This document shows, one piece after another, positions 24,153-41,105 of a stretch of DNA of 64,000 bases (positions are counted from its first letter, which is position 1; each line of letters starts with the position of its first letter). The position numbers were made by a program, and so were the translations under genes. This DNA comes from Paracoccaceae bacterium. Lineage in GTDB: Bacteria; Pseudomonadota; Alphaproteobacteria; Rhodobacterales; Rhodobacteraceae. The stretch lies in the NCBI GenBank assembly GCA_003567315.1, contig PWZT01000088.1, forward strand, positions 25,610 to 89,609. Direction: 5' to 3'. The notes under the pieces are model-generated. The model saw nothing but the letters and a program-made list of their open reading frames with translations. It had not been told where the DNA came from and searched no databases.

Positions 24153-24818
24153 ATGAAACGAGCATTGGTGATCGGATCGTCCGGCGGGATCGGAAGCGCA
24201 TTGAGCGAAGCCCTGAGCGAGCAGGGCTGGCAGGTGACAGGGCTGTCACGGTCTCACAACGGGCTTGATGTCACGAGCGAAGCGTCAGTGGCCGAACATC
24301 TCGACAGCCTCGAAGGCCCTTTCCAGCGCATCCTGATCGCCACAGGCGCGCTCGAGATCAACGGCCACACGCCCGAAAAGGCGCTCAAGCACCTCTCGGC
24401 GGATGCGCTGGGTGCTCAATTCGCGCTCAACACCATCGGGCCTGCGCTGGTGATGAAACATGCGCTGCGGCTGCTGCCGCGCGATGAGCCCTCGGTCATG
24501 GCAGCGCTGTCGGCACGCGTGGGTTCGATCGGCGACAACAGGGCAGGGGGGTGGCACAGCTACCGCGCCTCCAAGGCGGCACTGAACCAGATCATCCGCG
24601 GCGCGGCCATCGAGATTGGGCGCACGCATCGCGAAGCGGTGTGTGTGGCGCTGCACCCTGGCACGGTCGCCACGAAATTCACGGAGAAATACCTTGGGCG
24701 TCATCCAGCAGTTCCGCCTGCGGAAGCCGCGCAGAATCTCTTGCAGGTGATCGACTCGCTGACGCCAGAGCAAAGTGGGGCGTTTTTCGATTGGGCCGGG
24801 AAACCTGTGCCATGGTAA
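24153..24818 (+). CDS. SDR oxidoreductase, CsgA/C-factor-like
   Basis: VIGSSGGIG, ALSARVGSIGDNRAGGWHSYRASKAALNQ, LHPGTV. Confidence 0.9.
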   Translation: MKRALVIGSSGGIGSALSEALSEQGWQVTGLSRSHNGLDVTSEASVAEHLDSLEGPFQRILIATGALEINGHTPEKALKHLSADALGAQFALNTIGPALVMKHALRLLPRDEPSVMAALSARVGSIGDNRAGGWHSYRASKAALNQIIRGAAIEIGRTHREAVCVALHPGTVATKFTEKYLGRHPAVPPAEAAQNLLQVIDSLTPEQSGAFFDWAGKPVPW

Positions 24819-26338
24819 AACTAGCTCTGGTGCTGGGCGACCAGTTGAGCGCCGATATTGCTGCGCTCCAGGCAGCAGATAAGCAAACCGATGTGGTCGT
24901 GATGGCCGAGGTCGCGGCGGAAGCCGAATATGTGCCGCATCACCCCAAGAAGATCGCCTTCCTTTTTACGGCCATGCGCAAATTCGCTGCGCAGTTGCGC
25001 GACAAGGGATGGAAGGTCGCCTATACCAGCTTGGATGACCCTGACAATTCTGGCTCAATCTCTGGCGAATTGCTGCGCCGCACGGAAGAATTTGAAGCAT
25101 CGGCTGTGCTGGCGACAGAACCCGGCGAATGGCGTCTAATCCATGAATTGCAGGACTTGCCGCTTGATGTGACGCTTTTGCCCGATGACCGGTTTATCTG
25201 TTCGCACGGGGAATTCGAAGACTGGGCCGAGGGGCGCAAATCGCTGCGGATGGAGTATTTCTACCGCGAGATGCGTCGCAAGACCGGGCTGTTGATGGAG
25301 GGTGACAAACCTGCAGGCGGGAAGTGGAATTTCGATCACGACAACCGCAAGCCTGCCACGGATGATCTCTTTCGCAAGGGGCCGCCCAAGGCGCAGGGCG
25401 ATCCTGTTCTCGAGGAAGTTCTGGAGCTTGTGGAAAAGCGCTTTTCCGACAATTTCGGCGCATTGCGCCCGTTTCACTTCCAGACCGATAGGGCCGGGGC
25501 GTTGCGCGCGCTCGATCATTTCATCGAACACGCGCTGCCGGATTTCGGGACCTATCAGGACGCGATGCTGCAGGACGATCCGTATCTCTATCACGCTGTC
25601 ATTGGGCTATATCTGAATGCGGGGTTGCTGGGGCCGTTCGAGGTATGCAACAGGGCCGAGGAAGCGTATCACTCGGGCCATGCGCCGCTCAATTCGGTGG
25701 AAGGCTTCATTCGCCAGATCATCGGCTGGCGCGAGTTCGTGCGCGGCATCTATTTTCTGGAAGGCCCTGAGTATCCACGCCGCAATGCGCTCAACCACCA
25801 GCGTAAACTCCCGGCATTCTACTGGGGTGCTGAAACGCGCATGAATTGTATCGCGCAAGCTGTTGGTCAGACACACGATCTTGCCTATGCGCATCATATC
25901 CAGCGGCTTATGGTGACGGGAAATTTCGCACTGCTGGCCGGGGTCAATCCGGCCGAGGTGCATGAATGGTACCTTGCAGTCTATGCCGATGCATATGAAT
26001 GGGTCGAGGCCCCCAACACCGTGGGCATGTCACAATTCGCCGATGGCGGGATACTGGGCTCGAAACCTTATGTCAGTTCCGGGGCCTATATCGACCGCAT
26101 GTCGGATTACTGCAAATCCTGTCATTACAAGGTGAAGGACAAGACTGGCGAGAAGGCGTGCCCGTTCAATCTGCTTTACTGGCACTTCCTGATCCGCCAC
26201 CGTGCGCGGTTCGAAGGCAATCCACGCATGGCGCAGATGTATCGAACCTTCGACCGGATGGACAAATCCCGGCGCGAGATAGTTCTGGCGGAGGCTGATG
26301 CATTTCTGGACAGGCTTTCCCGCGGGACACTCGTCTGA
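24812..26338 (+). CDS. Fe-S bacterial cryptochrome/(6-4) photolyase (CryB/PhrB family)
   Basis: LVLGDQL, HHPKKI, RMEYFYREMR, WNFDHDNRK, RQIIGWREF, HHIQRLM; Cys in MNC, YCKSC, ACPF. Confidence 0.9.
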   Translation: MVKLALVLGDQLSADIAALQAADKQTDVVVMAEVAAEAEYVPHHPKKIAFLFTAMRKFAAQLRDKGWKVAYTSLDDPDNSGSISGELLRRTEEFEASAVLATEPGEWRLIHELQDLPLDVTLLPDDRFICSHGEFEDWAEGRKSLRMEYFYREMRRKTGLLMEGDKPAGGKWNFDHDNRKPATDDLFRKGPPKAQGDPVLEEVLELVEKRFSDNFGALRPFHFQTDRAGALRALDHFIEHALPDFGTYQDAMLQDDPYLYHAVIGLYLNAGLLGPFEVCNRAEEAYHSGHAPLNSVEGFIRQIIGWREFVRGIYFLEGPEYPRRNALNHQRKLPAFYWGAETRMNCIAQAVGQTHDLAYAHHIQRLMVTGNFALLAGVNPAEVHEWYLAVYADAYEWVEAPNTVGMSQFADGGILGSKPYVSSGAYIDRMSDYCKSCHYKVKDKTGEKACPFNLLYWHFLIRHRARFEGNPRMAQMYRTFDRMDKSRREIVLAEADAFLDRLSRGTLV

Positions 26339-26377: not shown

Positions 26378-27487
26378 GTGAAAATGACTTCGCCGCGCTA
26401 CACTGACATTGTTGCCAACCTCCCTGCCACAGTGCCCTTTGTCGGGCCAGAGGCGCATATGCGCGCATCGGGGCGCGCCTTTCGCGCGCGGCTTGGCGCG
26501 AATGAAAGCGTGTTCGGGCCATCGCCCAAGGCGCAGGCGGCGATGCAGGAGGCTGTGGGCGAGCTTTGGATGTATGGCGATTCCGAATGCCATGACTTGC
26601 GCCTCGCACTTGCCGAACATCACGGCATCGCGCCCGAGAACATCCTCGTGGGCGAGGGGATTGATGGTCTGCTCGGCAATCTCGTCCGGCTGGTCGTTGG
26701 CCCGGGCGATGCTGTCGTGACCTCGGATGGGGCCTATCCGACTTTCAACTACCATGTTGCGGGCTTTGGTGGCGTTCTGCACAAGGTGCCTTACCGCGAT
26801 GATCATGAAGACCCGGCAGCGCTTCTGGAGCGCGCTGAAGCGGTTTCGGCGAAGCTTCTGTATTTCTGCAATCCTGACAATCCGATGGGAAGCTGGCATT
26901 CCGCGCGCATCGTCCAGCGGATGATGGACGCAGTTCCCGAGGGTACGCTGCTGGTTGTCGATGAAGCCTATATCGACGCGGCCCCCGAGGGGACGGCGCC
27001 ACCCATAGACCCGGATAATCCGCAGGTCATTCGGATGCGGACATTTTCCAAGCTCTACGGCCTTGCGGGCTTGCGGGTCGGTTACGCCATCGCCGCAGCG
27101 CCGCTGATCGCCATGTTCGACCGGATTCGCAATCATTTCGGTATGGGCAGGCTTGCCCAGATCGGTGCGCTGGCGGCGTTGCAGGATCAGGCGTGGTTGG
27201 AGCATGTGCACGGTGAGGTGAGTGCGGCCCGAGCGCGCCTTGCGCAGATCGCGGCTGACAATGGCCTGCATGCGCTGCCATCAGCGACCAATTTCGTCAC
27301 GATGGATTGTGGCCGCGACGGCGCCTTTGCGCGGCGGTTGGTCGCGGCGCTGATGGCGCGCGATGTCTTCGTACGCATGCCTTTCGTCGCGCCGCATGAT
27401 CGCTGCATCCGCGTCAGTGCCGGCACCGCGCAGGACTGCGAGATTTTCGCACAGGCCGTGCGCGACGCGTTGAAGGGTATCGACTGA
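26378..27487 (+). CDS. PLP-dependent aminotransferase class I/II (HisC-like)
   Basis: LGANES, CNPDNPMG, VDEAY, RTFSKLYGLAGLRVGY. Confidence 0.88.
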   Translation: MKMTSPRYTDIVANLPATVPFVGPEAHMRASGRAFRARLGANESVFGPSPKAQAAMQEAVGELWMYGDSECHDLRLALAEHHGIAPENILVGEGIDGLLGNLVRLVVGPGDAVVTSDGAYPTFNYHVAGFGGVLHKVPYRDDHEDPAALLERAEAVSAKLLYFCNPDNPMGSWHSARIVQRMMDAVPEGTLLVVDEAYIDAAPEGTAPPIDPDNPQVIRMRTFSKLYGLAGLRVGYAIAAAPLIAMFDRIRNHFGMGRLAQIGALAALQDQAWLEHVHGEVSAARARLAQIAADNGLHALPSATNFVTMDCGRDGAFARRLVAALMARDVFVRMPFVAPHDRCIRVSAGTAQDCEIFAQAVRDALKGID

Positions 27488-27692
27488 CGCGAGGTGAGGG
27501 CGGTGCCAAGAAGCTTGCGTTCATTCCGGTGCGTCCGCGCGTTGACGTGGTGTGACGTAAGTGGAGGAAGGTAGAGACACCCGGCCCACTCCTCCCCGGC
27601 CTTTACCACTTGGTAACGCTGTTGCTGATTCCTTCTGCTCTCAGAGAAATGGACAGCACTTGCGTCGGAAATTTATGCACTTTGCCGTCGCT

Positions 27693-27709
27693 TGCCTGAA
27701 TATTCAGCA
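27693..27709. promoter_or_regulatory. Palindromic TGC-N11-GCA site (NtrC-like)
   Basis: TGCCTGAATATTCAGCA containing the perfect palindrome CTGAATATTCAG, about 90 bp before the ABC operon. Confidence 0.4.
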
Positions 27710-27795
27710 TCGGCCCGAGCGACCTAGCGTGCGCCACGCCATGATCTTTTGTTCGCGGGGGCTGTCAGAGAACATCGGCATGTCTAAACCAGAGG

Positions 27796-28794
27796 ATGTC
27801 ACAGATGCGTCTGCCCTTTCTTGCAAGTTCCGCCGTTCTGGCCCTGTCCACCCAAGCTTCCGCCCTGACCGAAGTGACCTTCGGCACCAACTGGCTGCCG
27901 CAGGCCGAACATGGCGGTTTCTATCAATCCGTCGCCGATGGAACCTATGCCGAATGTGGGCTGGATGTGACCATCATCCCCGGTGGACCACAAGTGAACA
28001 ATCGCGCTCTCTTGATGGCCGATCGTATCCAGTTCCATATGGGCGGTGATCTGTTACAGGCCTTCAACGCGGTCGCCGAGGACATCCCTGTGGTTGCTGT
28101 GATGGCCTCTTTCCAGCGTCACCCGCAGGTCATTATCTCACACCCTGGAGAGGCCGATACATGGGAAGAGCTTAAGGATCTGACGCTCTTCATCGGGGAT
28201 AACGGTTATACCTCCTACTACCAGTGGATGATCTCGGAGCATGGCTTCACCTCCGAGCAACGGCAACCCTACACATTTAATCCGGCCCCGTTCCTCGCCA
28301 ATCCCCGGTCCGGGATGCAGGGCTTCCTGTCTTCCGAGCCCTACGCCATCCAGAGTGAGGCCGGGTTTGAACCCAATGTCTTCCTGATCGCCGATGCGGG
28401 CTATTCCACCTATGCCACCACGGTCGAGGTCATGCAGTCCACCATCGACACCAACCCCGAGGCGGTGGAGTGTTTCGTCAACGGCTCGATCCTGGGTTGG
28501 TATAACTTCCTCTATGGCGACAACGAGGATGCAATCCAGATGATCCTTGATGCCAATGAGGACATGACCCGCGATCGGATCGATTTCGCCATCGACATGA
28601 TGATCGATTTCGGCATCGTGGACAGTGACTCCGCGCTCGAACTCGGGATCGGGGCCATGACTGAAGAAGAGGTGGAAGCCTTTTACACCTCAATGGTCGA
28701 GGCCGGCGTGGTCGAGGCAGGACTCGACTGGACCCCTGCCGTGAATTTTGACTTCGTAAATCAGGGTCTCGGGATGGAGCTGCGCCCCGAATAA
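27796..28794 (+). CDS. ABC transporter substrate-binding protein, NMT1/THI5-like
   Basis: Signal peptide; TNWLPQAEHGGFYQ, PGGPQVN, QGFLSSEPY. Confidence 0.85.
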   Translation: MSQMRLPFLASSAVLALSTQASALTEVTFGTNWLPQAEHGGFYQSVADGTYAECGLDVTIIPGGPQVNNRALLMADRIQFHMGGDLLQAFNAVAEDIPVVAVMASFQRHPQVIISHPGEADTWEELKDLTLFIGDNGYTSYYQWMISEHGFTSEQRQPYTFNPAPFLANPRSGMQGFLSSEPYAIQSEAGFEPNVFLIADAGYSTYATTVEVMQSTIDTNPEAVECFVNGSILGWYNFLYGDNEDAIQMILDANEDMTRDRIDFAIDMMIDFGIVDSDSALELGIGAMTEEEVEAFYTSMVEAGVVEAGLDWTPAVNFDFVNQGLGMELRPE

Positions 28795-28825
28795 GGGTAC
28801 TGCGCTGCCGCAAAAGGGGGATTTC

Positions 28826-29605
28826 ATGACACCTGCGCCGATGGGCCAGAGATCGCGCGTTCTGGACATGACCCGCGTGACCAAGACCTTCAATGGCGAT
28901 GTGGTCGCGCTGCGGGACATGGATTTGTCGGTCAATAGCGGAGATTTCATTTCACTGCTGGGCCCGTCGGGCTGTGGCAAATCCACGGCCCTGCGGTTGA
29001 TCGCGGGGCTGTCGAACACCAGCGCCGGGCGCATCACCTGGGCCGGGGGGCAGTCGGAAAACGATCTGGGCGTGGTTTTTCAGGAGCCCACGCTCATGCC
29101 CTGGGCGACCGTGGCGCAGAATGTCTGGTTGCCTTTCCGGCTGAAGGGGCAGAGCTATGCTTCGGTCAAGGACGAGATCCTTGAGGCGCTGCGGCTGGTC
29201 GGGCTGGAGAATTTTCTGGAGTCCTATCCGCGGGAATTGTCCGGGGGCATGAAGATGCGCGTCTCCATCGCCCGCGCGATGGTGACAAAGCCGCGGCTGA
29301 TCCTGATGGATGAACCATTCGCTGCGCTCGATGAGATCACGCGCTTTCGCCTGAACAACGATCTGCTAACGCTCAAGGCACGGATCGGTTGCACGGTGAT
29401 CTTTGTGACGCATTCGGTGTTTGAGTCGGTATTTCTGTCTGACCGAATTGTCGTTATGGCGGCCCGGCCAGGCCGGGTGATCCGCGAGGTGCATGTGGAC
29501 GCGCCCTATCCGCGGTCCGAGGAATTCCGCACCTCCGCCGAGTATGCCGCGCTTTGCCGCGAGGCCTCGGACGCGTTGCGTGAGGCGATGGGAGAGATTG
29601 CATGA
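28826..29605 (+). CDS. ABC ATP-binding protein (TauB/SsuB/NitT type)
   Basis: GPSGCGKST, VVFQEPTLMPW, LSGGMKMRV, LMDEPF, FVTHS. Confidence 0.93.
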   Translation: MTPAPMGQRSRVLDMTRVTKTFNGDVVALRDMDLSVNSGDFISLLGPSGCGKSTALRLIAGLSNTSAGRITWAGGQSENDLGVVFQEPTLMPWATVAQNVWLPFRLKGQSYASVKDEILEALRLVGLENFLESYPRELSGGMKMRVSIARAMVTKPRLILMDEPFAALDEITRFRLNNDLLTLKARIGCTVIFVTHSVFESVFLSDRIVVMAARPGRVIREVHVDAPYPRSEEFRTSAEYAALCREASDALREAMGEIA

Positions 29606-30471
29606 GCATTGCCGAGAACCAGTCGCGTATATCGGAGAGCCAGCCGCTATATGACGCCGATGATCTTAAACGCTTACGCGCAGCCCGGTTCGAGCGTTTC
29701 GGCCGCTGGCTTCTGCCAGTGGTGGTGCTGATCGCCGCGATCTGGCTTTGGGACCGGATCGTTGTATGGAACGAGATCCCGCATTTCATCCTGCCGCGCC
29801 CCGGTCTGGTGATGCAAACGCTGATAAGCGACTGGCCCATGCTGTTCAGTGCGCTGATGATCACCTTGCAGATCACGATGATGGCGCTGGCCGTCGCTGT
29901 TATCGGCGGGGTCGGGCTGGCGGTGCTGTTCACGCAAAGCCGTCTGGTCGAGATGTCGTTCTACCCCTATGCGGTCATTATGCAGGTCACTCCGGTGGTC
30001 GCCATCGCGCCCCTGATCTTCATCTATGTGGACAGCCGCACTGCGGGGCTGCTGCTCTGCGCTTGGCTGGTCGCGTTCTTTCCGGTGCTCGCCAACACCA
30101 CGCTGGGGCTGAATTCGGCCGATCACAACCTGCGCGACCTGTTCCGCATCTACGGCGCCTCGCGCTGGCAGACGCTTCGCTACCTGCGCCTGCCCTCGGC
30201 GCTGCCCTATTTCCTGGGGGGCTTGCGCATCGCCGGGGGGCTTGCGCTGATCGGCGCGGTGGTCGCGGAGTATGTCGCGGGCACGGGTGGTCATGGTTCC
30301 GGCCTCGCGTTCCGCATTCTGGAAGCCGGGTATCGCCTGAACATCCCGCGTATGTTCGCCGCCCTGATCCTGATTGCCGTCACTGGGGTGATCATCTTCG
30401 CGGGTCTGTCGTTTCTCAGCCACATGCTGCTACGTAAATGGCACGAGAGCGCCGTGAAGCGAGAGACATGA
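29602..30471 (+). CDS. ABC permease (TauC/SsuC type)
   Basis: Multiple TM segments; EAA-like LFRIYGASRWQTLRYLRLPSALP. Confidence 0.92.
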   Translation: MSIAENQSRISESQPLYDADDLKRLRAARFERFGRWLLPVVVLIAAIWLWDRIVVWNEIPHFILPRPGLVMQTLISDWPMLFSALMITLQITMMALAVAVIGGVGLAVLFTQSRLVEMSFYPYAVIMQVTPVVAIAPLIFIYVDSRTAGLLLCAWLVAFFPVLANTTLGLNSADHNLRDLFRIYGASRWQTLRYLRLPSALPYFLGGLRIAGGLALIGAVVAEYVAGTGGHGSGLAFRILEAGYRLNIPRMFAALILIAVTGVIIFAGLSFLSHMLLRKWHESAVKRET

Positions 30472-31742
30472 TGGATTTCAAGACGCTGCCTGCTGCTGGC
30501 CCGTTCAGGCTGGAGAATGTAACTGTGCCCGCCTGCCTTCTGGGAAAGGAGGGCGGGCTGGTCCGCCATGCGGTGACCATCGACGGTGGCAAACTTTCGG
30601 ACGCGCCTGATGTGCCGGTGATCGATATGGGCGGGGCGATGGTGCTGCCCTGCTTCATCGACATGCATACGCATCTGGACAAGGGTCATATCTGGCCGCG
30701 CAGCCCCAACCCGGACGGCAGTTTCATGGGCGCGCTGACCACGGTCGCTGCCGACCGCGAGGCGAACTGGAGCGCCGAGGATGTGCGCGCGCGCATGGAT
30801 TTTGCGCTGCGCTGCGCCTTCGCGCATGGCACACGCGCCATCCGCACCCATATCGACAGCCTTGCCCCACAGGACGCGATTTCCTGGCCGGTCCTTGCCG
30901 AGCTGCGCGCGAAATGGGCCGGGCGGATTGCGTTGCAGGGGGCATCGCTGGCCGGGATCGACCGCGCGGATCTGAACGGCGACTACGCGCGCACGGCGGA
31001 TATTGTCGCCGAACATGGCGGTGTGCTGGGCATGGTCACCTACCCCGTGGACGGGTTGAAGGACCGCCTGCGCCAACTGTTCCAACTGGCCATCGCGCGC
31101 GATCTGGAACTGGATTTCCATGCCGACGAGTCGGGCGACCCGAATGCGGCGACCCTGCGCGCGATTGCCGAGGTTGCGCTGGAGACAGGCTTTGCCCGGC
31201 CCATCACGGTCGGCCATTGCTGCTCGCTCGCAGTCCAACCCGAGGCCGAGGCGCTGGACTCGCTTGATCTGGTGGCGCGCGCGGGGCTGAACATCGTGTC
31301 GCTGCCGATGTGCAACATGTATCTGCAGGACCGCACGCCCGGGTGCACGCCGCGCTGGCGGGGGATCACGCTGGTCCATGAGATGAAAGCACGCGGCATC
31401 AATGTGAGTTTTGCCTCCGACAATACCCGCGATCCGTTCTATGCTTACGGCGATCTCGACATGCTCGAGGTGCTGCGCGAAGCGACGCGGATCGCCCATC
31501 TCGATCATTCAGATCCCGACTGGATCAACGCCTTCCTGACCAACCCCGCGCGCGCCTGCAGCCTCGATGCGCCCAGCCTTGCGCCCGGCGCGCCTGCTGA
31601 TCTGATCATCCTGCGCGCGCGCAGCTGGACCGAGGCGCTGGCGCGCCCGCAATCCGACCGGATCGTGTTGCGGGCGGGGCGCGCGATTGACCGATCGCTT
31701 CCTGATTATGCCGAGCTTGACCATCTGACGAGGACGCCATGA
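30468..31742 (+). CDS. Amidohydrolase-superfamily deaminase (cytosine deaminase-like; substrate uncertain)
   Basis: DMHTHLDK, FHADES, GHCCSL, ASDNTRDPFY metal-binding motifs. Confidence 0.88.
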   Translation: MMDFKTLPAAGPFRLENVTVPACLLGKEGGLVRHAVTIDGGKLSDAPDVPVIDMGGAMVLPCFIDMHTHLDKGHIWPRSPNPDGSFMGALTTVAADREANWSAEDVRARMDFALRCAFAHGTRAIRTHIDSLAPQDAISWPVLAELRAKWAGRIALQGASLAGIDRADLNGDYARTADIVAEHGGVLGMVTYPVDGLKDRLRQLFQLAIARDLELDFHADESGDPNAATLRAIAEVALETGFARPITVGHCCSLAVQPEAEALDSLDLVARAGLNIVSLPMCNMYLQDRTPGCTPRWRGITLVHEMKARGINVSFASDNTRDPFYAYGDLDMLEVLREATRIAHLDHSDPDWINAFLTNPARACSLDAPSLAPGAPADLIILRARSWTEALARPQSDRIVLRAGRAIDRSLPDYAELDHLTRTP

Positions 31743-33139
31743 AACCCAATGTCGCTGCCGCCAAAGCCGCCTTGTCGCATCTGGAAATCGACGAAAATCC
31801 GGTCTCGATCCGCGCCAAGTCGCGTGATTTCTTCTGGTATTCGCCCGTGCTCAAGGCAAGGATGGATCATCTGGAAGGCGATTTCGTCGTGGCCCCCCGC
31901 AACGAGGCCGAAGTGATCGCAGTGCTCAAGACCTGTTACGCCCATGACGTGCCAGTGACCACGCGCGGGGCGGGCACAGGCAATTACGGGCAGGCCATGC
32001 CGATGTCGGGCGGCTGCATCCTGCATATGAAGAACATGGCCGCCGTGAAGGAAGTGCATCCGGGCCGTGTGATCGTGGAGCCGGGCTGCCTGCTCAAGGA
32101 TGTGGATGCCGAATGCAAGGCGCAGTCAGGGCAGGAATTGCGCATGTTCTCCAGCACATGGGCCACGGCGACCATCGGGGGCTTTGTCGCGGGCGGCTCG
32201 GGGGGGATAGGCTCCTGCACATGGGGCTCGCTGCGGGACTTGGGCAATATCATCCGCCTGCGCGTTGTCACGATGGAGGAAGAGCCGCGCGTCCTGGAGT
32301 TTCGCGGCGAGGAACTGGCGCGCGTCAGCCACGCCTATGGCACCAACGGCATCATCACCGAACTGGAGATGCCGCTGGCCCCGGCCTATGACTGGGTGGG
32401 GCTCTTCGTTGCCTTCGACGATTTCGATGCCGCGCTCGACTATACCGAAACGCTGGCCAATCAGGACGGCATCCTCATCAAGATCGCCAGCGTCTACGAA
32501 GCCCCCACTGCGCATAGCTATTTCCAGCGCGTGGCCCCTTATGTCAGCGAGGGCACGCATCTGGTCGGCCTGATGGTCGCGCCGCAATCCATGGACGGGT
32601 TCAACACCTTCACGGCGCGCAGACCCGAGGCGAAGATCATCTACCAATCCGGGCAGAGCGACTGGGCGCGCGATCCCGGCCCGGTCTTTGAATATGGCTG
32701 GAACCACACCACTCTGCGCGCGCTGAAGGTCGATCCAAGCATCACCTATCTGCAAGTGCGCTATGGCTATCCCAGCCATGCCGAAAAGGTTCGCGCGATG
32801 CGCAAGGCACTTTCGCCCGAAGTGTTGCAGCATCTGGAAGTCATCCGCGAGAACGGCAAGGTCATGTTCGCCGGGCTGAGCCTGGTGAAATTCACCACCG
32901 AGGACCGGCTGGACGAGATCGTGCGGATGCACGAGGACGCAGGCTGCATGATCTTCAACCCGCACCGCTTCACGCTTGAGGAAGGCGGGCGGCAGACAGT
33001 CGATGACCGGCAGTTGAATTTCAAGCGCGAGGCCGACCCCAAGGGGCTGCTCAATCCCGGCAAGATGATCGCCTGGGACGATCCGCATTGGAGCTATGAC
33101 CGGATCTATGAATATCCCGGCATGAAGGCCGCCGAGTGA
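31739..33139 (+). CDS. FAD-binding oxidoreductase (FAD_binding_4, GlcD-like fold)
   Basis: PVTTRGAGTGNYG, ATIGGFVAGGSGG, C-terminal DPKGLLNPGK. Confidence 0.85.
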   Translation: MKPNVAAAKAALSHLEIDENPVSIRAKSRDFFWYSPVLKARMDHLEGDFVVAPRNEAEVIAVLKTCYAHDVPVTTRGAGTGNYGQAMPMSGGCILHMKNMAAVKEVHPGRVIVEPGCLLKDVDAECKAQSGQELRMFSSTWATATIGGFVAGGSGGIGSCTWGSLRDLGNIIRLRVVTMEEEPRVLEFRGEELARVSHAYGTNGIITELEMPLAPAYDWVGLFVAFDDFDAALDYTETLANQDGILIKIASVYEAPTAHSYFQRVAPYVSEGTHLVGLMVAPQSMDGFNTFTARRPEAKIIYQSGQSDWARDPGPVFEYGWNHTTLRALKVDPSITYLQVRYGYPSHAEKVRAMRKALSPEVLQHLEVIRENGKVMFAGLSLVKFTTEDRLDEIVRMHEDAGCMIFNPHRFTLEEGGRQTVDDRQLNFKREADPKGLLNPGKMIAWDDPHWSYDRIYEYPGMKAAE

Positions 33140-33720
33140 TGACCCGCGCGCTCGTCCTCTTTGCCCATCCCTGCCCCGAAAGCTTCTCCGCCGCGCTGCA
33201 TACCCGCGTGGTCGAGACGCTGACGGCGCGCGGTTGGGAGGTGGATGATTGCGACCTCAATGCCGAAGGCTTCTCGCCTGTGCTGACCGAGGCCGAGCGG
33301 CGCGGCTATCACGATGTCGGCCCCAATCTCGCGCCAGTGCAGCCCTATGTGGAGCGCGTGCAGGCCGCGCAGGCGTTGGTGCTGGTCTTTCCAGTGTGGA
33401 ATTTCGGCTATCCTGCTATCCTGAAAGGGTTTTTCGACCGCGTGTTCCTGCCCGGCGTCTCCTTCCGGCTGGAAGCGGGCAAGGTGCGCCCCAACCTCAC
33501 GCATATCCGTAAGCTTGCGGCAGTTACCACCTATGGCGGCACACGGCTGCGCGCGATTCTTGCAGGCGATCCGCCGCGCCATGTGGTCAAGCGCGCGCTC
33601 TGGCATGTGACACGGCCCGAGAAACTGCGCTATCTTGCGCTTTATGACATGAACCGCGCCAGCGATGCACAGCGTGCGGGGTTTCTGGCCCATGTGGGCC
33701 GCGAGATGGAGAGGCTGTGA
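33136..33720 (+). CDS. Flavodoxin-fold NAD(P)H-dependent oxidoreductase, copy 1
   Basis: AHPCPESF, FPVWNFGYPAILKGFFDRVF. Confidence 0.88.
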   Translation: MMTRALVLFAHPCPESFSAALHTRVVETLTARGWEVDDCDLNAEGFSPVLTEAERRGYHDVGPNLAPVQPYVERVQAAQALVLVFPVWNFGYPAILKGFFDRVFLPGVSFRLEAGKVRPNLTHIRKLAAVTTYGGTRLRAILAGDPPRHVVKRALWHVTRPEKLRYLALYDMNRASDAQRAGFLAHVGREMERL

Positions 33721-34346
33721 TGCGCGCGCTTGTCGTCTATTGCCACCCCGATCCGGCGAGCTTTACAGCCGCCATCCGCGATCTGGTGCTGGCGCGGCTG
33801 GAGCGTGCGGGTGCCGAGACCCGGCTGCATGATCTTTACGCACAGGGGTTCCAGCCCTGCCTGACGCAGGCTGAATGGCAGGGCTATCTGCAAAGCCCTG
33901 AGAACCGCGCGCCTGTGGCAAATGCAACCGAGGATCTGCTGTGGTGCGATACGCTGATCTTCGTCTATCCGACTTGGTGGTATGGGCTGCCCGCGATGCT
34001 GAAAGGCTGGCTCGACCGCGTGCTTTTGCCCGAGGTGGCCTTCCTGATGCCCGACGGGGTGAACAAGACGATCCGCCCGGGGCTGGGCCATATCACGCGG
34101 ATGGGTGTGTTCACGACCTGCGGGGCAAGCCGCTGGCTGACCTTCTTCATCGGCGCGCCGGGCAAGCGCACGCTTCTGCGCGGGGTGCGGCTGCTATGCG
34201 CGCGGCGCTGCCGCACTGCCTTTGCCGCGCATTACCTCATGGACAGCTCCACACCCGAGAGCCGCAAGGCGCATCTTGCCCGCGTGGGCGCGAAGCTCGA
34301 CAAGCTGATCGGCGCGCGCAGCCAGCCTAGCGAGGTAACCGCATGA
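33717..34346 (+). CDS. Flavodoxin-fold NAD(P)H-dependent oxidoreductase, copy 2
   Basis: CHPDPASF, YPTWWYGLPAMLKGWLDRV. Confidence 0.88.
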   Translation: MMRALVVYCHPDPASFTAAIRDLVLARLERAGAETRLHDLYAQGFQPCLTQAEWQGYLQSPENRAPVANATEDLLWCDTLIFVYPTWWYGLPAMLKGWLDRVLLPEVAFLMPDGVNKTIRPGLGHITRMGVFTTCGASRWLTFFIGAPGKRTLLRGVRLLCARRCRTAFAAHYLMDSSTPESRKAHLARVGAKLDKLIGARSQPSEVTA

Positions 34347-35254
34347 GTGTTCCAATTCTCGACTGGGCCGATCATGCGCGCGACCCGGAAGGATTTGCGC
34401 GGGCGCTCGGCGCCACCTGTCGCAAAACCGGGTTCTTCCTGCTCAAAGGGCATGGCATCCCCGAGACTTTGATTGCCGAGGTGTTCCGCCACTCGGAGCA
34501 GTTCTTCGCTCAAGGCGAGGAAGCCAAGCGCCCGCTCTCCATCGCCACCAATCCACATAATCGCGGCTGGGCCTATATGGGTTCGGAATCACTCGACGAG
34601 ACATCCGGCCAGAGCGACCGCAAGGAGGCGTTCAATATCGGGCTCGATCTGAGCCCCGATGATCCGCGCGTGCTGGCGGGAGAGCCCTTTCGCGGCGTCA
34701 ATCTCTGGCCCGATCTGCCGAGGTTTCGCGATGTGATGCTCGATTATTTTAACGCGGTCTGGGAGCTTTCAGTCGCGCTGATGCAGCCGGTCGCGCGCGA
34801 TCTGGGCCTGCCCCCGCACCATTTCGCTGCTGATTTCGATGCGCCAATGGCGATCCTGCGGCTGCTGTCCTATCCGGCGGCCAGCGGCGCGGAAGGCGAG
34901 ATCGGCGCGGGCGCGCATACGGATTACGGCGCGCTGACATTGCTTCTGACCGATGGCGCGCCGGGATTGCAGGTGCGCCCGCGCGGGCAGGACTGGCAGG
35001 ATGTGCCGCATCTCGACGGGGCTTTCATCGTCAATATCGGCGATTGCCTGATGCGCTGGACCAATGACATCTATGTCTCGACCCCGCATCGCGTTCTGCC
35101 CCCGCCGCGCGCGCGCAAATCGGTGGCTTTCTTTCTCGACCCCAACCCGGATGCGCAGATTGAGGTGCTGCCGGGCACAGGCGCACCGAAATACGCCCCT
35201 GTCAGCGGGGCGGAGTATCTGCAATCGCGCCTGAGCGCGACTTACAGCACATGA
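34343..35254 (+). CDS. 2OG-Fe(II) oxygenase, isopenicillin N synthase-like family
   Basis: GFFLLKGHGI, HTDYG (HxD), NIGD, STPHRV, RKSVAFF (RxS). Confidence 0.9.
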   Translation: MSVPILDWADHARDPEGFARALGATCRKTGFFLLKGHGIPETLIAEVFRHSEQFFAQGEEAKRPLSIATNPHNRGWAYMGSESLDETSGQSDRKEAFNIGLDLSPDDPRVLAGEPFRGVNLWPDLPRFRDVMLDYFNAVWELSVALMQPVARDLGLPPHHFAADFDAPMAILRLLSYPAASGAEGEIGAGAHTDYGALTLLLTDGAPGLQVRPRGQDWQDVPHLDGAFIVNIGDCLMRWTNDIYVSTPHRVLPPPRARKSVAFFLDPNPDAQIEVLPGTGAPKYAPVSGAEYLQSRLSATYST

Positions 35255-35261
35255 GGGACTG

Positions 35262-36029
35262 ATGCGACGGCTGGACTGGGCGGATTATCGCAGCGCGGAA
35301 TATGCGCAGATCGACCCGATGCGCACCATCGCGATCCTGCCCACAGCGGCGATCGAGCAACATGGGCCGCATCTGCCAGTCGGCGTGGATATGATGATCA
35401 ATGAGGGGCTGCTGGCGCTGTTGCGGGAACGCTGCCCCGAGGACCTCGATATCCGTATCCTGCCCATACAAGCGGTGGGCAAATCCAACGAGCACCTGCA
35501 TGCGCCCGGCACGCTGACCCTGAGTGCCGAGAATGCGTTGCGGATCTGGACGGAGATCGGGCTCTCGGTCGCCCGCGCCGGGGTGCGCAAGATCGTCATT
35601 GTTAACAGCCATGGCGGCAATCTGGATCTGATTTCGATCCTCGCGCGCGAGTTGCGGGTGGAGGCGGGGATGCTGGCCGTCAAAAGCCAATGGGGCAGTT
35701 TCGGCCAGCCCGAGGGCTTGTATTCAGCCGAGGAACTCGCCTTTGGAATTCATGGTGGTGATGTGGAGACCTCGCTGATGCGCGCCTTCCGGCCCGAGCT
35801 GGTCGATATGGGCGCGACGCGGAACTTCATCTCATCCGCGCAAACTGACAGCCTGTCGCCCATCGGGCCTGTCTCCTACGGCTGGATTGCAAGCGATCTG
35901 AATGCGGCCGGCACAGTCGGCGACGCAACGCGGGCGACAGCAGAGAAGGGCCATGCGACGGCCGCGCATTACGTTGCCGGTTTCATTGATCTATTGCGCA
36001 GGGTGGCGGCGCATGATTTGCCGAGATGA
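35262..36029 (+). CDS. Creatininase-family cyclic amidohydrolase
   Basis: EQHGPHLPVGVD, NSHGGN, HGGDVETS. Confidence 0.9.
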   Translation: MRRLDWADYRSAEYAQIDPMRTIAILPTAAIEQHGPHLPVGVDMMINEGLLALLRERCPEDLDIRILPIQAVGKSNEHLHAPGTLTLSAENALRIWTEIGLSVARAGVRKIVIVNSHGGNLDLISILARELRVEAGMLAVKSQWGSFGQPEGLYSAEELAFGIHGGDVETSLMRAFRPELVDMGATRNFISSAQTDSLSPIGPVSYGWIASDLNAAGTVGDATRATAEKGHATAAHYVAGFIDLLRRVAAHDLPR

Positions 36030-36243: not shown

Positions 36244-36318
36244 TGGCTGGGGTGGTAGGATTCGAACCTACGGTACACGGTACCAAAAACCGCTGCCTTA
36301 CCACTTGGCTACACCCCA
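36244..36318 (-). tRNA. tRNA-Gln(TTG), CCA encoded
   Basis: Minus strand TGGGGTGTAGCCAAGTGGTAAGGCAGCGGTTTTTGGTACCGTGTACCGTAGGTTCGAATCCTACCACCCCAGCCA; cloverleaf with TTG anticodon and GGTTCGAATCC T-arm. Confidence 0.97.
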
Positions 36319-36537: not shown

Positions 36538-37968
36538 TCAGAGACCTTTCGCCCGGTAGCTCGCAGCAACGCGCTGGATTGCGACGATGAAAGCGGCGGT
36601 GCGCAAATCATGTACATCGCTTCGCATGCGCCATTCCTCCGAGATCGCCTGGTAGGCCACCCGCATCGTATCGTCGAGCCCTGAGCGAACAAGTTGCAAC
36701 TCATCCGCACCTTGCAGGTAACGCTTCTTGAAATCCGGTGCGAGCTCCCAGCCGAGTTGCTTGTCCGCAGACAGCCGCTCGAGTTCCTGCACAAGTAGCA
36801 TCGCGTGCGCTTCTTCATTGCGCCGCTGCATCCGGCCGAAGCGGATATGGCTGAGATTTTTCACCCATTCGAAATAGGAGACCGTGACCCCGCCGGCGTT
36901 TGCATAAAGGTCCGGGATGATCACGACCTCTTTTTCGCGCAGAATTTCGTCGGCACCGGCTGTTACCGGACCATTGGCGGCCTCGATGATCAAGGGTGCA
37001 CGGATTCGCGATGCGTTGTTGACATTGATCACGCCTTCGAGGGCGGCAGGGATCAGGATATCGCAGTCCTCTTCCAGAACGGATGCACCATCCTCGACAT
37101 ATTGTCCGCCATCAAAATCCTTGACGCCGCCGGTTTCCACAATCCATTCGCGCAGCTTCTCTGGATCAATCCCCGAAGTGTTGACCACCGCACCGTCGCG
37201 TTCGATCACGCCGATGATCAGCGCATCATCCTCCTCGCGTAGGAATTTTGCTGCGTGGTAACCCACATTGCCCAAGCCCTGCACAATGATGCGCTTGCCG
37301 GATAACCCACCTTTCAGGCCAGTCTTCGCGACATCATCGGGGTGGCGGAAAAACTCGCGCAGGGCGTATTGCACACCACGCCCCGTTGCCTCCACGCGGC
37401 CCTTGATGCCGCCTGCATTGAGCGGCTTTCCAGTGACGCAGGCGCGGGCATTGATGTCGGTCGTGTTCATGCGTGCGTATTGATCTGCAATCCAGGCCAT
37501 TTCGCGCTCGCTCGTACCCATGTCGGGGGCGGGCACGTTCTGCGCCGGGTTGATCAGGTCGCGTTTGGCCAGTTCATAGGCGAAACGGCGGGTGATCTGC
37601 TCAAGCTCGTGCTCCTCGTATTTCCGGGGGTCGAGGCACAGCCCGCCCTTGGAGCCGCCGAATGGTGTTTCCACCAGTGCGCATTTGTAGGTCATCAGCG
37701 AGGCCAACGCCTCGACCTCGTTTTGATTCACTTCCGGTGCGTAGCGGATACCGCCCTTCACGGGCTCCATATGCTCCGAGTGCACTGAACGATACCCGAC
37801 GAAGGTTTCGATCTTCCCGCGCAACCGCACGCCGAAGCGAACGGTGTAGGTGGAGTTGCAGATCTGGATTTTCTCGGCTAGCCCTGGTGGCAGATCGAGA
37901 TGCGCGACCGCGCGCCTGTACATCAGATCGACATTTTCGCGAAAGGCCGGTTCCCGTGTGTCGAGCAT
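36538..37968 (-). CDS. gdhA: Glu/Leu/Phe/Val dehydrogenase (probably glutamate dehydrogenase)
   Basis: KGGIRY, MTYKCA, PFGGSKGG, VPAPDMGT, ATGRGV, QGLGNVG, EAANGP, ANAGGVTVSYFEW; GGAGG RBS. Confidence 0.92.
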   Translation of the reverse strand: MLDTREPAFRENVDLMYRRAVAHLDLPPGLAEKIQICNSTYTVRFGVRLRGKIETFVGYRSVHSEHMEPVKGGIRYAPEVNQNEVEALASLMTYKCALVETPFGGSKGGLCLDPRKYEEHELEQITRRFAYELAKRDLINPAQNVPAPDMGTSEREMAWIADQYARMNTTDINARACVTGKPLNAGGIKGRVEATGRGVQYALREFFRHPDDVAKTGLKGGLSGKRIIVQGLGNVGYHAAKFLREEDDALIIGVIERDGAVVNTSGIDPEKLREWIVETGGVKDFDGGQYVEDGASVLEEDCDILIPAALEGVINVNNASRIRAPLIIEAANGPVTAGADEILREKEVVIIPDLYANAGGVTVSYFEWVKNLSHIRFGRMQRRNEEAHAMLLVQELERLSADKQLGWELAPDFKKRYLQGADELQLVRSGLDDTMRVAYQAISEEWRMRSDVHDLRTAAFIVAIQRVAASYRAKGL

Positions 37969-38108
37969 GGTTGTCCCTCCTGCTGGTGTGGCGTCTTCGC
38001 GCCGGTTGAGTTCTCTTGCGCCCATCGTAGCCAGAAGTGCGCTTAATAAAACAGCATTTTTTATTTCATTTGCTGGTTAATCGCGCAGTCCGATTTTTTC
38101 GTGACCGG

Positions 38109-38702
38109 TCAGGTGCTGATGCCGACCGCTTTGCGCACCATTTCCCAGTAAATATCCTCGACCCGCGCGAGGCTCAGCCGTCCCCCCTCGCGATACCACG
38201 TATTAACTCCCGTCAGCATTGCGATCAGCGCAAATGTGGCCAGCTTGGTGTCCGGCACGGCGAACATGCCTGCCGATTTGCCGCGCGTGAGGATCGCTTC
38301 CAGACTGGCTTCATACTCGCGCCGCATCGCCTCGATCCGGGCGAAATTCTCGGGCTCCAGATTGCGCAGCTCCATATAGGCGATGAAGACAGCATCGCTG
38401 CGCGCGCGGTGAAACCGGATATGGAAACGGGTGAAATCTTCCAGCGCGGCGACAGGGCAATCCGGTGAGGGAAGAGCGCGCAATTCAGAAAGCAAATCCT
38501 GCATATGGGTCTGCATCAGATCAAAGAGCAAGCTTTGCTTGTCGGGCGTGTAGAGATAGAGCGCGCCCACCTGCACATCGGTTGCCTTGGCGATCATCCG
38601 CATCGACACTGCCGCATAGCCATGGCGCGCAAACAGCTGCAAGGCAGCGTCGCGCATGCGTGGGCGCGTGATTTCCGCTGAAGAGTTTTTCTTCCGTGCC
38701 AT
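38109..38702 (-). CDS. TetR/AcrR family regulator
   Basis: AALQLFARHGYAAVSMRMIAK..VQVGALYLY..DKQSLL. Confidence 0.9.
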   Translation of the reverse strand: MARKKNSSAEITRPRMRDAALQLFARHGYAAVSMRMIAKATDVQVGALYLYTPDKQSLLFDLMQTHMQDLLSELRALPSPDCPVAALEDFTRFHIRFHRARSDAVFIAYMELRNLEPENFARIEAMRREYEASLEAILTRGKSAGMFAVPDTKLATFALIAMLTGVNTWYREGGRLSLARVEDIYWEMVRKAVGIST

Positions 38703-38800
38703 GCCTGATTCATGCCCGCGAACATGCCCCACGCGCAAGCCCGCTTGCGCGCAGATGGGCGCCCGGGCTATCGTTACCCGATTAACGGGGCGCAGGAACA

Positions 38801-39118
38801 ATGACCATCACAAGGCGCGAAGGTATCACTGGCAGAGCCGTGCTTATCGCATGCGCAGTGCTGTTGCTGTCCAGTTGCCTGGGATCGCCCGATTTGCCCG
38901 CGCCGCGTGGGGATGGCGGCGGTGAGGCGCCGCAACTCTTGCCGATCGCCGGCATCCTCGCCCAGACCGCCGATGGGGTTCACACAGCGCGACTGACCGA
39001 TGCCACCCCCGAGGCCCGTGCCGCTGCCTTGCGCAGGCGCGCCGCGACTTTGCGCGGCCCCGTGCTCACCGCGCAGGAACGCGCGCGGATGCTTGCCTCA
39101 AACCCCCGCCTGCGTTGA
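38801..39118 (+). CDS. Hypothetical lipoprotein
   Basis: Lipobox LLSSC after a hydrophobic stretch; RAAALRRRAATLRGPVL C-terminus. Confidence 0.6.
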   Translation: MTITRREGITGRAVLIACAVLLLSSCLGSPDLPAPRGDGGGEAPQLLPIAGILAQTADGVHTARLTDATPEARAAALRRRAATLRGPVLTAQERARMLASNPRLR

Positions 39119-39895
39119 GTTTTCGATCTCGGCGAGTGCCGCGCGTTCCTCGGGGCGCAGGGCGCTTCGTTCGACCACAGCCGTATGGATCGAGAAAACC
39201 ACCGCGCCGGTCTTCGGCAGCTTCAACAGGCATTGCCGCTCGGACCGGATGAACTCACCCTGCATGCTCTTGTCTTTTGGCGCGCCCTCAAGCCGGGGCT
39301 GGAACAGCGCCGGGTTAGCGTAATGCAGCAGATTGGCGCGCCAGAGCGGTTGTTCAGGGCGCATCAGGTCGAACATGCGCTGCACGCGCGTGCCGATATT
39401 GGCATCGTAGCTGGCGACCGGTTTGTGAATGCGCATCATTGGCTTTCCGAGTTTTTCCGAGAGGGTCCAGCTGGACGGAAAGCAGAGCACGGCCCCGGTC
39501 AAAACATGCTCATCTTGCCCGGCGGGTTTTTGCAGAATGCAGAAATCCGCTTGCAGCAGATGCCCAAGGGTCCAGAGCGGATGCGCAGGGTCGATCTCGA
39601 CTTCCCGCTCATCCGGGCACTGCACAATGCCCCCGCGCCGCGTAAAACCATGCAGCAGAATATCGCGCAGCACCTCGTCCAGCAATTCTGCTGCTGCGTC
39701 CCGAGCCTGTGGCAATGCGCCCAGCACCTCTGCCGCGCGCGTGGCAAGCAACTCAGCGCGCGCCTGCATCTGCGCTGCATAGGCCGCATCGACCATGAGC
39801 CAATCCGCACGCGCAAGCGGCATGACGCCGGGCAAGCGGCGATATGCAGGGTTCACCCAAGGCGCGAAGGGAAGTTCCGGATGCAATACGGCCAT
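39098..39895 (-). CDS. DUF3445 / heme-dependent oxidative N-demethylase alpha-like protein
   Basis: LLQADFCIL, LTGAVLCFPSSWTLSEKLGKP..IHKPV, RSERQCL..LPKTGAVVFSIHT. Confidence 0.78.
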   Translation of the reverse strand: MAVLHPELPFAPWVNPAYRRLPGVMPLARADWLMVDAAYAAQMQARAELLATRAAEVLGALPQARDAAAELLDEVLRDILLHGFTRRGGIVQCPDEREVEIDPAHPLWTLGHLLQADFCILQKPAGQDEHVLTGAVLCFPSSWTLSEKLGKPMMRIHKPVASYDANIGTRVQRMFDLMRPEQPLWRANLLHYANPALFQPRLEGAPKDKSMQGEFIRSERQCLLKLPKTGAVVFSIHTAVVERSALRPEERAALAEIENSTQAGV

Positions 39896-39971
39896 ATCGA
39901 AGCGTTAATTTGAGTTGAATCCTGCGTCAAATATTTGTTGCGCGACGCGTGCGCCGCAGTAGGCTCTGCAC

Positions 39972-41105
39972 ATGGACAGTGCCACACCAGATTACACCTT
40001 GGGCATCGAAGAGGAGTATCTCCTCGTCGATGTCGAAACCTGCGCCCTCGTCGATGTGCCCGACGCATTGATGGAGGATTGCGCCAAAGAGCTTGGCGAC
40101 AAGGTCTCGCCCGAGTTTCTCGCCTGCCAGATAGAGGTCGGCACCGGCGTTTGCGCCAATATCGCCGAGGCGCGCGCCGATCTCGGGCATCTGCGCCGCA
40201 CCATCGCTGATTGTGCCGCGAATTACGGTATGGCCCCGCTTGCCGTCTCCTGCCATCCCTTCGCGGATTGGCACCAGCGCAAGCAGACCGAAAAGCAACG
40301 CTACAACGATCTCGCGCGCGATCTTGCGGGCGTGGTGCGGCGCATGCTGATCAGTGGCACGCATGTCCATGTCGGCCTGCCCGATGATGACCTGCGCATC
40401 GATATCATGCGCCAGATCACCTATTTCCTGCCACATCTTCTGGCGCTCTCGACTTCATCGCCGTTCTGGGGCGGGCAGGATACCGGGCTGAACAGCTACC
40501 GCCTGACGATCTTTGACAATCTGCCGCGCACGGGCCTGCCGCCCGACTTCATCAGCCATGGCGAGTATCGGCGCTCGGTCGATATGATCATCGATGCAGG
40601 GCTTATCGAGGATACGACCAAGATTTGGTGGGATATCCGCCCCTCGGCGCGGTTCCCGACGCTGGAGGCCCGGATATGCGATGTCATGCCATTCATGGAG
40701 CACACGCTGACCATCGCCGCTCTGGTGCAGTCGATCACGCGCATGCTGGTGGAGCTGCGCCGCCGCAATCAGCGCTGGCGCATCTATGACCGCTTCCTGA
40801 TCGCCGAGAACCGCTGGCGGGCACAGCGCTACGGGCCGCGCGAGGGGCTGTTGGATATCGGCAAGGGCGCTCTGGTGCCTGTGCCGCAGCTTGTCACTGA
40901 ACTGATCGAACTGCTGGAGGCCGATGCCATCACGCTCGATTGCGTCAATGAAGTGCGCGGGGCGCAGGATATTCTCGCGACGGGCACGAGTGCAGAGCGC
41001 CAACGTGCGGTCTATGGCGCAGCGGTCGAGCAGGGCGCGGATCAGGATGAGGCTTTGCGCGAAGTCGTGCGCGCGTTGATCACGGAGTTTCGCGCCGGGC
41101 TGTAG
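39972..41105 (+). CDS. Carboxylate-amine ligase (YbdK / GCS2 family)
   Basis: [49 protein letters not shown]. Confidence 0.9.

Follow-up and report, generated by a model that had tools for sequence, protein, structure and literature searches.

Nearly every cell makes pterins (2-amino-4-oxopteridines), in the form of folate, biopterin and molybdopterin fragments and of pigments, and these compounds, with five nitrogen atoms in each molecule of pterin, are released to soil and sea. To our knowledge, their bacterial degradation has been described for a single pathway, published in 2025, which requires molybdenum. Here we analyse a nine-gene operon from a member of the Rhodobacteraceae, located at positions 27796-36029 of a 64,000-nt stretch of contig PWZT01000088.1 (hereafter the window, whose coordinates are used throughout). 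We propose that it encodes the uptake and the molybdenum-independent oxidative breakdown of pterins (pterin itself, 6-substituted pterins and folate fragments), a reading to which we give a probability of roughly 0.52.

The pathway already described is that of cluster I of Cupriavidus sp. LA-1 (Doi et al., Commun Biol 2025, PMC12391406), which allows growth on pterins and consists of a pterin deaminase that produces lumazines, oxidation of the pyrazine ring, and ring opening or rearrangement by attack on amides. Its enzymes include a molybdenum lumazine dehydrogenase, an amidase-signature isomerase and a UbiD-type decarboxylase, together with purine/pyrimidine permeases (PMC12391406). The statement of the original prediction that pterin and lumazine breakdown is genetically poorly defined has been outdated by that work (PMC12391406), though the enzymes of that pathway differ from those encoded in the window. 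In Rhizobiales and Rhodobacterales, a cytosine-deaminase-like (CDA-like) gene replaces the Cupriavidus-type pterin deaminase (PMC12391406), and Arad_3529 of Agrobacterium radiobacter is such a cytosine-deaminase-like protein with pterin deaminase activity (PMC12391406; PMC9513972). This protein, from A. radiobacter (Rhizobium rhizogenes) K84, and the deaminase of the window belong to a common type of CodA-like amidohydrolase. Fan et al. (J Am Chem Soc 2013, 135:795) reportedly regarded Arad3529, by its genome context, as the first step of a pterin degradation pathway not described at that time.

The route that we propose for the window would likewise begin with the deamination of a pterin to a lumazine. 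However, no molybdenum lumazine dehydrogenase was found among the nine operon genes or in the flanks of the window, and the three MoCoBD_1 molybdenum hydroxylases of the genome are all on other contigs. A UbiD protein of the xanthine-8-carboxylate decarboxylase type had no match in the genome, which is 90% complete, and the amidase-signature 6,7-dihydroxylumazine isomerase is absent from the nine-gene operon, the rest of the genome not having been searched for it. The Cupriavidus-type molybdenum-dependent pathway is not what this operon encodes.

A second system to be compared is Rut (RutA-G) of E. coli, in which a flavin oxygenase, fed by a separate flavin reductase, attacks a uracil-type ring, followed by an amidohydrolase, the Rid protein RutC and the NAD(P)H flavoprotein RutE. 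Rut and the operon are alike in logic, but their proteins come from unrelated families (a luciferase fold in RutA, an isochorismatase-like protein in RutB, a flavin reductase in RutF), and Rut has neither a deaminase nor an ABC importer.

A coupled gene order conserved from Rhodobacteraceae to rhizobia

Nine co-directional open reading frames (ORFs) were found on the + strand, and a Pfam search of their translations assigned each of them to the family named in the original prediction (Table 1). In order, they encode the substrate-binding protein (SBP), ATPase and permease of an ABC importer, an amidohydrolase deaminase, a flavin adenine dinucleotide (FAD) protein, two flavodoxin-fold reductases, a 2-oxoglutarate (2OG)/Fe(II) oxygenase and a creatininase-family hydrolase, and each gene is single-copy in the genome. 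When the junctions were read directly in the DNA, six 4-nt start/stop overlaps appeared in a row, as had been claimed, four of them ATGA (29602, 30468, 31739 and 34343) and two GTGA (33136 and 33717), with an alternative ATG 3 nt after each GTGA start. Gaps of 31 nt and 7 nt separate the SBP gene from the ATPase gene and the 2OG gene from the creatininase gene, respectively. The longest ORF of the deaminase starts at 30438, but translation probably begins at the coupled ATG, 30468 (or 30471).

The conservation of the operon was studied at 80 loci, retrieved from species-representative genomes by scanning them with the FAD protein; at these loci gene order was determined by tblastn with all nine proteins, and recurrent genes were detected by all-against-all clustering of the ORFs. 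The order SBP-ATPase-permease-deaminase-FAD-reductase-reductase-(2OG)-creatininase was found at essentially every locus of sufficient length, whereas none of the genes flanking the operon in the window recurs across the 80 loci. Because the order recurs in this way and the flanks do not, far beyond chance, the nine genes are one unit. The deaminase and Flavodoxin_2 genes were each present at 76 loci, the latter mostly in two copies, and at 76 loci the deaminase, FAD and Flavodoxin_2 genes adjoin; the creatininase gene was found at 65 and the 2OG gene, an optional accessory, at 42.

A further gene recurs at 48 of these loci, directly upstream of the SBP gene and divergent from it, and encodes a 130-aa protein of the Rid family (RidA-like; for example, L001:5470-5862). 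It is absent from positions 27187-27795 of the window, where an aminotransferase gene abuts the operon instead, and the four Rid genes of the genome are all on other contigs. In the flanks of the 80 loci the Rid gene alone recurs, with no recurrent molybdenum enzyme, UbiD, amidase or folate hydrolase. The genes are strongly co-conserved, the contrary of one outcome that would have refuted the original prediction, and the nine-gene unit proposed at the outset stands as it occurs in the window; as a conserved unit, it is better described as eight genes plus, usually, the divergent RidA gene, with the 2OG gene as an addition in the fraction of loci given above.

The unit was found elsewhere too. 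A plasmid of Sulfitobacter pontiacus carries it together with RidA, and on Rhizobium megaplasmids it is rearranged into the order creatininase / LysR / SBP-ATPase-permease-deaminase-FAD-one reductase / RidA. Compared with this Rhizobium version, which includes a LysR regulator and RidA, places the creatininase gene apart, has only one reductase and lacks the 2OG oxygenase, that of the window has two reductases, the 2OG oxygenase and a creatininase gene joined into the operon, with no regulator or RidA nearby. Genes for PaoABC adjoin the operon in R. leguminosarum WSM1325 and are absent in Rhizobium sp. K1/93. Five further alphaproteobacterial families showed a contiguous deaminase-FAD-reductase core (five loci). 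Within the Rhodobacteraceae, a survey of 201 genomes, one per genus, gave an FAD orthologue of at least 66% identity in about 47 and an NF005759 deaminase above the cut-off in 52, almost always adjoining the FAD gene, in such a way that the distribution of the operon is patchy, covering about a quarter of the genera sampled. This recurrent adjacency of deaminase, FAD and Flavodoxin_2 genes, at the 76 loci, in the five other families and in the pairing of NF005759 with the FAD gene, is one of the reasons for our pterin proposal. Plasmids carry the operon in Sulfitobacter, Palleronia and Rhizobium, and its G+C content in the window (0.61-0.66 at 28000-36000) is slightly higher than that of both flanks (0.57-0.61). 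G+C offset, plasmid carriage and patchy spread suggest that it is a horizontally mobile accessory unit.

Homologies of the deaminase, the FAD protein and their partners

The deaminase of the window scored 616.7 bits on the NCBIfam model NF005759 (PRK07583), above its cut-off of 403 bits, and 128.4 bits on the CodA model NF006685/PRK09230, far below the 483 bits required. In alignments with the CodA structures 1K6W and 4R7W and in a MAFFT alignment, the metal and catalytic positions of CodA are kept (HxH, His214, Glu217, His246 and Asp313), whereas Gln156-Glu157 of the FPQE motif correspond to a two-residue gap and Asp314 is changed to Asn. In CodA, Gln156 binds cytosine, and Gln156-Glu157 are the residues that recognise it. 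The motif of the deaminase clade is SDNTRDPFYAYGD. A separate CodA-like gene of canonical type elsewhere in the genome retains the FPQ motif, and the loss of Gln156-Glu157 in the operon enzyme while this other gene is kept is a further reason to think of pterins. In a small tree, the deaminase grouped with its Rhodobacteraceae and Rhizobium orthologues (support 90/97), apart from the amidohydrolases of the sister modules described below and far from CodA. Scores, residues and tree agree with the idea, already contained in the original prediction, that this is not a canonical cytosine or creatinine deaminase.

The syntenic protein of Rhizobium leguminosarum is 52% identical to the deaminase of the window and scored 701.9 bits on the same NF005759 model, and a 96%-identical copy of it, UniProt A0A2Z4YP06, bears the name 'Pterin deaminase'. 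We take this family link as support for a pterin substrate, together with the pterin deaminase activity of the CDA-like Arad_3529 and the presence of such genes in Rhizobiales and Rhodobacterales (PMC12391406, PMC9513972). From sequence, the enzyme of the window is probably a pterin-type deaminase. In a separate observation on 14 well-known control genomes, the NF005759 cut-off was passed only by a protein of Synechococcus elongatus; cyanobacteria are rich in pterin glycosides.

The FAD protein matched PDB entries 6V42 and 6V43 over its full length (residues 4-465; phmmer E 1.6e-174; 56% identical), with which it has in common the VAO/PCMH fold and the FAD_binding_4 domain, and its AlphaFold model (pLDDT 81) superposed on 6V42 with a TM of 0.90 in Foldseek. 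The entry, released on 2020-12-02, is entitled 'Crystal structure of the flavin oxygenase with cofactor bound involved in folate catabolism', and it is because of this title that the homology points to pterins. D-lactate and D-2-hydroxyglutarate dehydrogenases follow in the structural comparison, with identities of only about 20%. Among Rhodobacteraceae the FAD protein is conserved at 66-94% identity, and 6V42 itself falls in the orthologue group of the operon, being 66% identical to the Rhizobium protein versus 41% to the Klebsiella sister type; its best match among 400 alphaproteobacterial genomes was 67% identical. At 56% identity, the transfer of function from 6V42 to the protein of the window is probable, short of certain. 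This homology, and that of the deaminase to a Rhizobium orthologue linked to the name 'Pterin deaminase', lend support to the pteridine put forward as candidate substrate in the original prediction.

The SBP begins with a signal-peptide-like sequence, and the nearest structures to its AlphaFold model (pLDDT 87) were ThiY (formylaminopyrimidine-binding, 3IX1), the thiamin-binding SBP 4NMY and Thi5, at 14-17% identity; since these are proteins that bind pyrimidine rings, they also favour a pterin. The best NCBIfam matches of the ATPase were of the nitrate, taurine and sulfonate type, all of them below cut-offs. The two Flavodoxin_2 proteins are 37% identical to each other, with PDB matches to the NADPH quinone oxidoreductase 3LCM and NQO1 for the first and to the quinone reductase 4GI5 and NQO2 for the second, and two copies are found in most Rhodobacteraceae loci versus one in Rhizobium. 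The 2OG oxygenase shows the HxD...H triad as HTD...H and the RxS motif as RKS, and its closest PDB entries are 9OVH (ethylene-forming-enzyme-like), 6JYV (PA4191-like) and the fungal thymine dioxygenase 5C3P. In the translation of the last gene, the metal motifs ExHGxHLP...D and NSHGGN were recognised, but the protein scored only 77.5 bits on TIGR04448, the creatininase equivalog (cut-off 235), 92.5 bits on the MftE model (cut-off 172), and below the cut-offs of the IolN and ArfB models as well. By these sequence scores it has the creatininase fold and is not a true creatininase.

A CodA-like amidohydrolase, a creatininase-family protein and a 6V42-like FAD protein also form a triad, joined by RidA, in three sister modules: on plasmid p2B17602 of Klebsiella pneumoniae (L085), in Pantoea sp. 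SO10 (L087) and on the megaplasmid of Ruegeria sp. TM1040 (L086). The Flavodoxin_2 and DIOX_N genes are replaced by a PDR/VanB reductase in the enterobacterial modules, which also have an NMT1-type importer, and by a TauD oxygenase and a glutamine amidotransferase in Ruegeria. The FAD proteins of these modules show 37-42% identity, and their amidohydrolases scored 220-269 bits, below the NF005759 cut-off. Their substrate is probably a different one.

A possible route of pterin breakdown and the alternatives

Around the gene content, coupling, co-conservation and homologies described above, we infer both the substrate and each of the chemical steps that follow. A pterin would be imported by the NMT1-type ABC importer, and the CodA-like amidohydrolase would strip off its 2-amino group as ammonia to give the corresponding lumazine, in which a uracil ring is fused to pyrazine. 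The VAO-fold FAD protein would then oxygenate the lumazine. Unable to bind NAD(P)H itself, this protein would depend for its reduction on the two NQO-like flavoproteins, which probably act as a heterodimer. An oxygenase that depends on an electron donor fits the data, because the protein lacks an NAD(P)H site and is always followed by NQO-like reductases, or accompanied by a PDR/VanB reductase in the enterobacterial sisters, and it agrees with the title of the PDB entry. Alternatively, the NQO-like pair may keep quinonoid intermediates of the diaminouracil type reduced.

In the loci that have it, the 2OG/Fe(II) oxygenase could carry out an optional second oxidation, the hydroxylation of a pyrazine C-H, which in Cupriavidus is the step of the molybdenum enzyme, or else a thymine-7-hydroxylase-like oxidation of a methyl or hydroxymethyl side chain at C6. 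The creatininase-fold hydrolase would open a cyclic amide, or remove a formyl or oxalyl amide, made by these oxidations. The creatininase family includes a cyclic-amide hydrolase and a formamide hydrolase. Candidate substrates for this step would be 6,7-dihydroxylumazine, whose oxidised pyrazine is a cyclic oxamide, or a formyl- or oxalyl-aminouracil left after oxidative cleavage. In most relatives, the Rid-family protein would deal with reactive imines or enamines. That the genes form a complete pathway and that it serves nitrogen scavenging, as the original prediction had it, we likewise infer.

Several observations weigh against pterins as the substrate. Orthology of the deaminase to Arad3529, the sole enzyme proven biochemically, is supported indirectly; the UniProt name 'Pterin deaminase' is an unreviewed annotation; and 6V42 is tied to folate catabolism by the title of its PDB entry, a literature search having yielded no publication for 6V42/6V43. 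Genes specific for folate (carboxypeptidase G, AbgAB) are not recurrent near the operon at the 80 loci. The sister module of Ruegeria TM1040 has no reductase gene, and in one relative (G119) the FAD gene is missing from the operon: the locus (L096, G119:C47, 7904-13469) reads SBP-ATPase-permease-deaminase-Flavodoxin_2-creatininase, with a 49%-identical FAD homologue on a separate contig. An NF005759 paralogue, 43% identical, lies in a xanthine-riboswitch-controlled NMT1/2OG unit of another Rhodobacteraceae genome, and the family may also act on purine-like rings. Finally, no RNA runs with the sequence of the window were found, the matches being DNA metagenomes only.

Control signals were also looked for. 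No Rfam family was detected at 27488..27795 at E<=1, the thiamin pyrophosphate (TPP) and xanthine riboswitches being both absent, and a core-motif search for the xanthine aptamer was negative both for the genome of the window and for the 80 operon-type loci. The + strand of the upstream region showed no convincing sigma-70 site, and the region 5' of the SBP gene contained no TGGCAC-N5-TTGC-like sigma-54 site and, in a search for a conserved operator, no shared 10-mer above background.

The rival that we call the most serious is a base of the purine type, aminated or oxidised (for instance isoguanine, 8-oxoguanine or some related bicyclic base), which would be deaminated to a xanthine-like product before the oxygenases and the hydrolase dismantle it. 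In E. coli, CodA carries the annotation cytosine/isoguanine deaminase, and a xanthine riboswitch lies beside the Klebsiella sister module. The unit with the NF005759 paralogue mentioned above (L095, G031:C6) has RF03054 at 3727-3775 and 6775-6825 (46 and 37 bits), before the genes for an NMT1-type SBP and a DIOX_N 2OG enzyme, and then a LysR gene and the deaminase gene. Genes under xanthine riboswitches have been linked with purine oxidation, and Yu and Breaker tied NMT1-type and pcbC-like dioxygenase genes to it (PMC7373994). However, the riboswitch was not found in the window or, by core motif, at the 80 loci and in the genome, the L095 unit has a different SBP subfamily and a 2OG enzyme only 33% identical, and folate, not purine, catabolism is named in the label of the FAD protein's nearest studied relative, so that we hold a purine substrate to be rather improbable. 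In its own right, L095 is a distinct small unit that ties the NF005759 deaminase family to xanthine-sensing control. A more general doubt is that the label 'folate catabolism' may not be transferable at 56% identity, and that the operon may act on some other N-heterocycle or cyclic amide; the sister modules, with the same triad and different transporters and accessory enzymes, point to a scaffold adapted to several substrates. Against this, the orthologues of the operon-type FAD protein and of the deaminase each group tightly and keep their synteny between Rhizobium and Rhodobacteraceae, and such conservation usually accompanies a conserved substrate class; we consider another heterocycle unlikely, without being far-fetched.

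A thiamin-derived pyrimidine (hydroxymethylpyrimidine (HMP), aminomethylpyrimidine or formylaminopyrimidine) is very unlikely. In such a scheme the creatininase-fold enzyme would serve as deformylase, the 4-amino group would be lost to the deaminase, and oxidation of methyl or hydroxymethyl groups would fall to the 2OG and FAD enzymes. This scheme would suit the structures nearest to the SBP (ThiY, a thiamin-binding SBP and Thi5), the presence of the formamide hydrolase ArfB in the creatininase family and the relation of the 2OG enzyme to thymine dioxygenase, which oxidises a ring methyl. But the similarity of the SBP to ThiY is very weak (E 1.7e-4, 17% identity), no TPP riboswitch was found in the window, tenA, thiD and thiE are not in or beside the operon at any of the 80 loci, deamination would wreck the pyrimidine for salvage, and the homologies of the FAD protein and the deaminase point to pterins. 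The use of creatinine or cytosine, by a creatininase and a cytosine/creatinine deaminase, is what the automatic annotations of the two hydrolases ('cytosine deaminase' and 'creatininase') would indicate, and has next to no credit with us: the scores on TIGR04448 and PRK09230 (77.5 vs 235 and 128 vs 483 bits) are far too low, the cytosine-binding Gln156 is deleted while a separate FPQ CodA-like gene exists elsewhere in the genome, and a VAO flavoprotein, NQO-like reductases and a 2OG oxygenase have no role in known creatinine routes. It was model scores and active-site residues that led us to reject both creatinine and cytosine.

Genomic surroundings and meaning of the operon

The coordinates of the operon and of its closest features are collected in Table 1. 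The host is a metagenome-assembled genome of the Rhodobacteraceae, near Roseinatronobacter/Natronohydrobacter, from soda-lake metagenomes. Upstream, a gene of the histidinol-phosphate-aminotransferase type (PRK08153-type) ends 308 nt before the operon, and downstream the operon is closed by tRNA-Gln and by a convergent glutamate dehydrogenase gene at 36538-38025. Beyond the latter, at 38109-41105, there are genes for a TetR regulator, a protein like the alpha subunit of haem-dependent oxidative N-demethylase (HODM_asu-like) and a GCS2 family glutamate-cysteine ligase-like protein, none of them conserved beside the operon in related loci. A photolyase-related protein (Pfam DPRP) is encoded at 24551-26338 (+), about 1.5 kb upstream of the operon. 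In the CryB/PhrB-type photolyase family the antenna pigment is a lumazine derivative. As the neighbourhood is not conserved in related loci, the proximity of this gene to the operon is probably a coincidence.

Table 1. Features of the operon and its borders in window coordinates
Feature	Position	Strand	Family match or remark
Presumed promoter/leader, upstream intergenic region of 308 nt	27488..27795	+	
Periplasmic SBP, NMT1/THI5-like, of a NitT/TauT-type ABC importer	27796..28794	+	Pfam NMT1, 49 bits
ABC ATP-binding subunit	28826..29605	+	Pfam ABC_tran, 110 bits
ABC permease	29602..30471	+	Pfam BPD_transp_1, 82 bits; ATGA overlap with ATPase gene
CodA-like amidohydrolase, probable pterin-type deaminase	30468..31742	+	Amidohydro_3/Amidohydro_1; NF005759/PRK07583, 616.7 bits
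VAO/PCMH-fold FAD protein, 6V42 orthologue type	31739..33139	+	FAD_binding_4
NQO1/NQO2-like flavodoxin-fold NAD(P)H oxidoreductase 1	33136..33720	+	Pfam Flavodoxin_2, 100 bits
NQO1/NQO2-like flavodoxin-fold NAD(P)H oxidoreductase 2 (tandem paralogue)	33717..34346	+	Pfam Flavodoxin_2, 106 bits
2OG/Fe(II) oxygenase, DIOX_N type, accessory	34343..35254	+	DIOX_N, 93 bits; 2OG-FeII_Oxy, 82 bits
Creatininase-family metal-dependent amidohydrolase	35262..36029	+	Pfam Creatininase PF02633, 221 bits
tRNA-Gln (anticodon TTG)	36244-36318	-	215 nt past the last stop codon of the operon

The operon is a Rhodobacteraceae member of a recognised operon family, whose biochemistry so far comprises one published enzyme and the crystal structure of a homologue of another. 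A bolder proposal, which we advance only tentatively and with the odds somewhat against it, is that a complete, molybdenum-independent destruction of the pteridine ring is widespread among marine and soda-lake Rhodobacteraceae and rhizobia, in which the VAO flavoprotein would be a true lumazine oxygenase fed by the NQO-like reductases and the creatininase-fold enzyme would open the pyrazine, replacing the molybdenum dehydrogenase, the isomerase and UbiD. We know of oxygenase chemistry in the VAO fold only from EncM-like enzymes so far, and the FAD protein may thus represent a new case of it. Materials for a direct test exist, namely cultured carriers of the operon (among them Sulfitobacter pontiacus BL28, Silicimonas algicola DSM 103371, Mameliella alba and Rhizobium leguminosarum), the crystal structure of a homologue and commercial pterins.

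If the proposal is true, functions would be gained for several large families annotated as 'cytosine deaminase', 'creatininase' and 'FAD-binding oxidoreductase', which would be mis-annotated in thousands of genomes. A second, flavin-based route of this kind would explain how abundant bacteria of the sea and of the rhizosphere recycle the nitrogen-rich ring of pterins.

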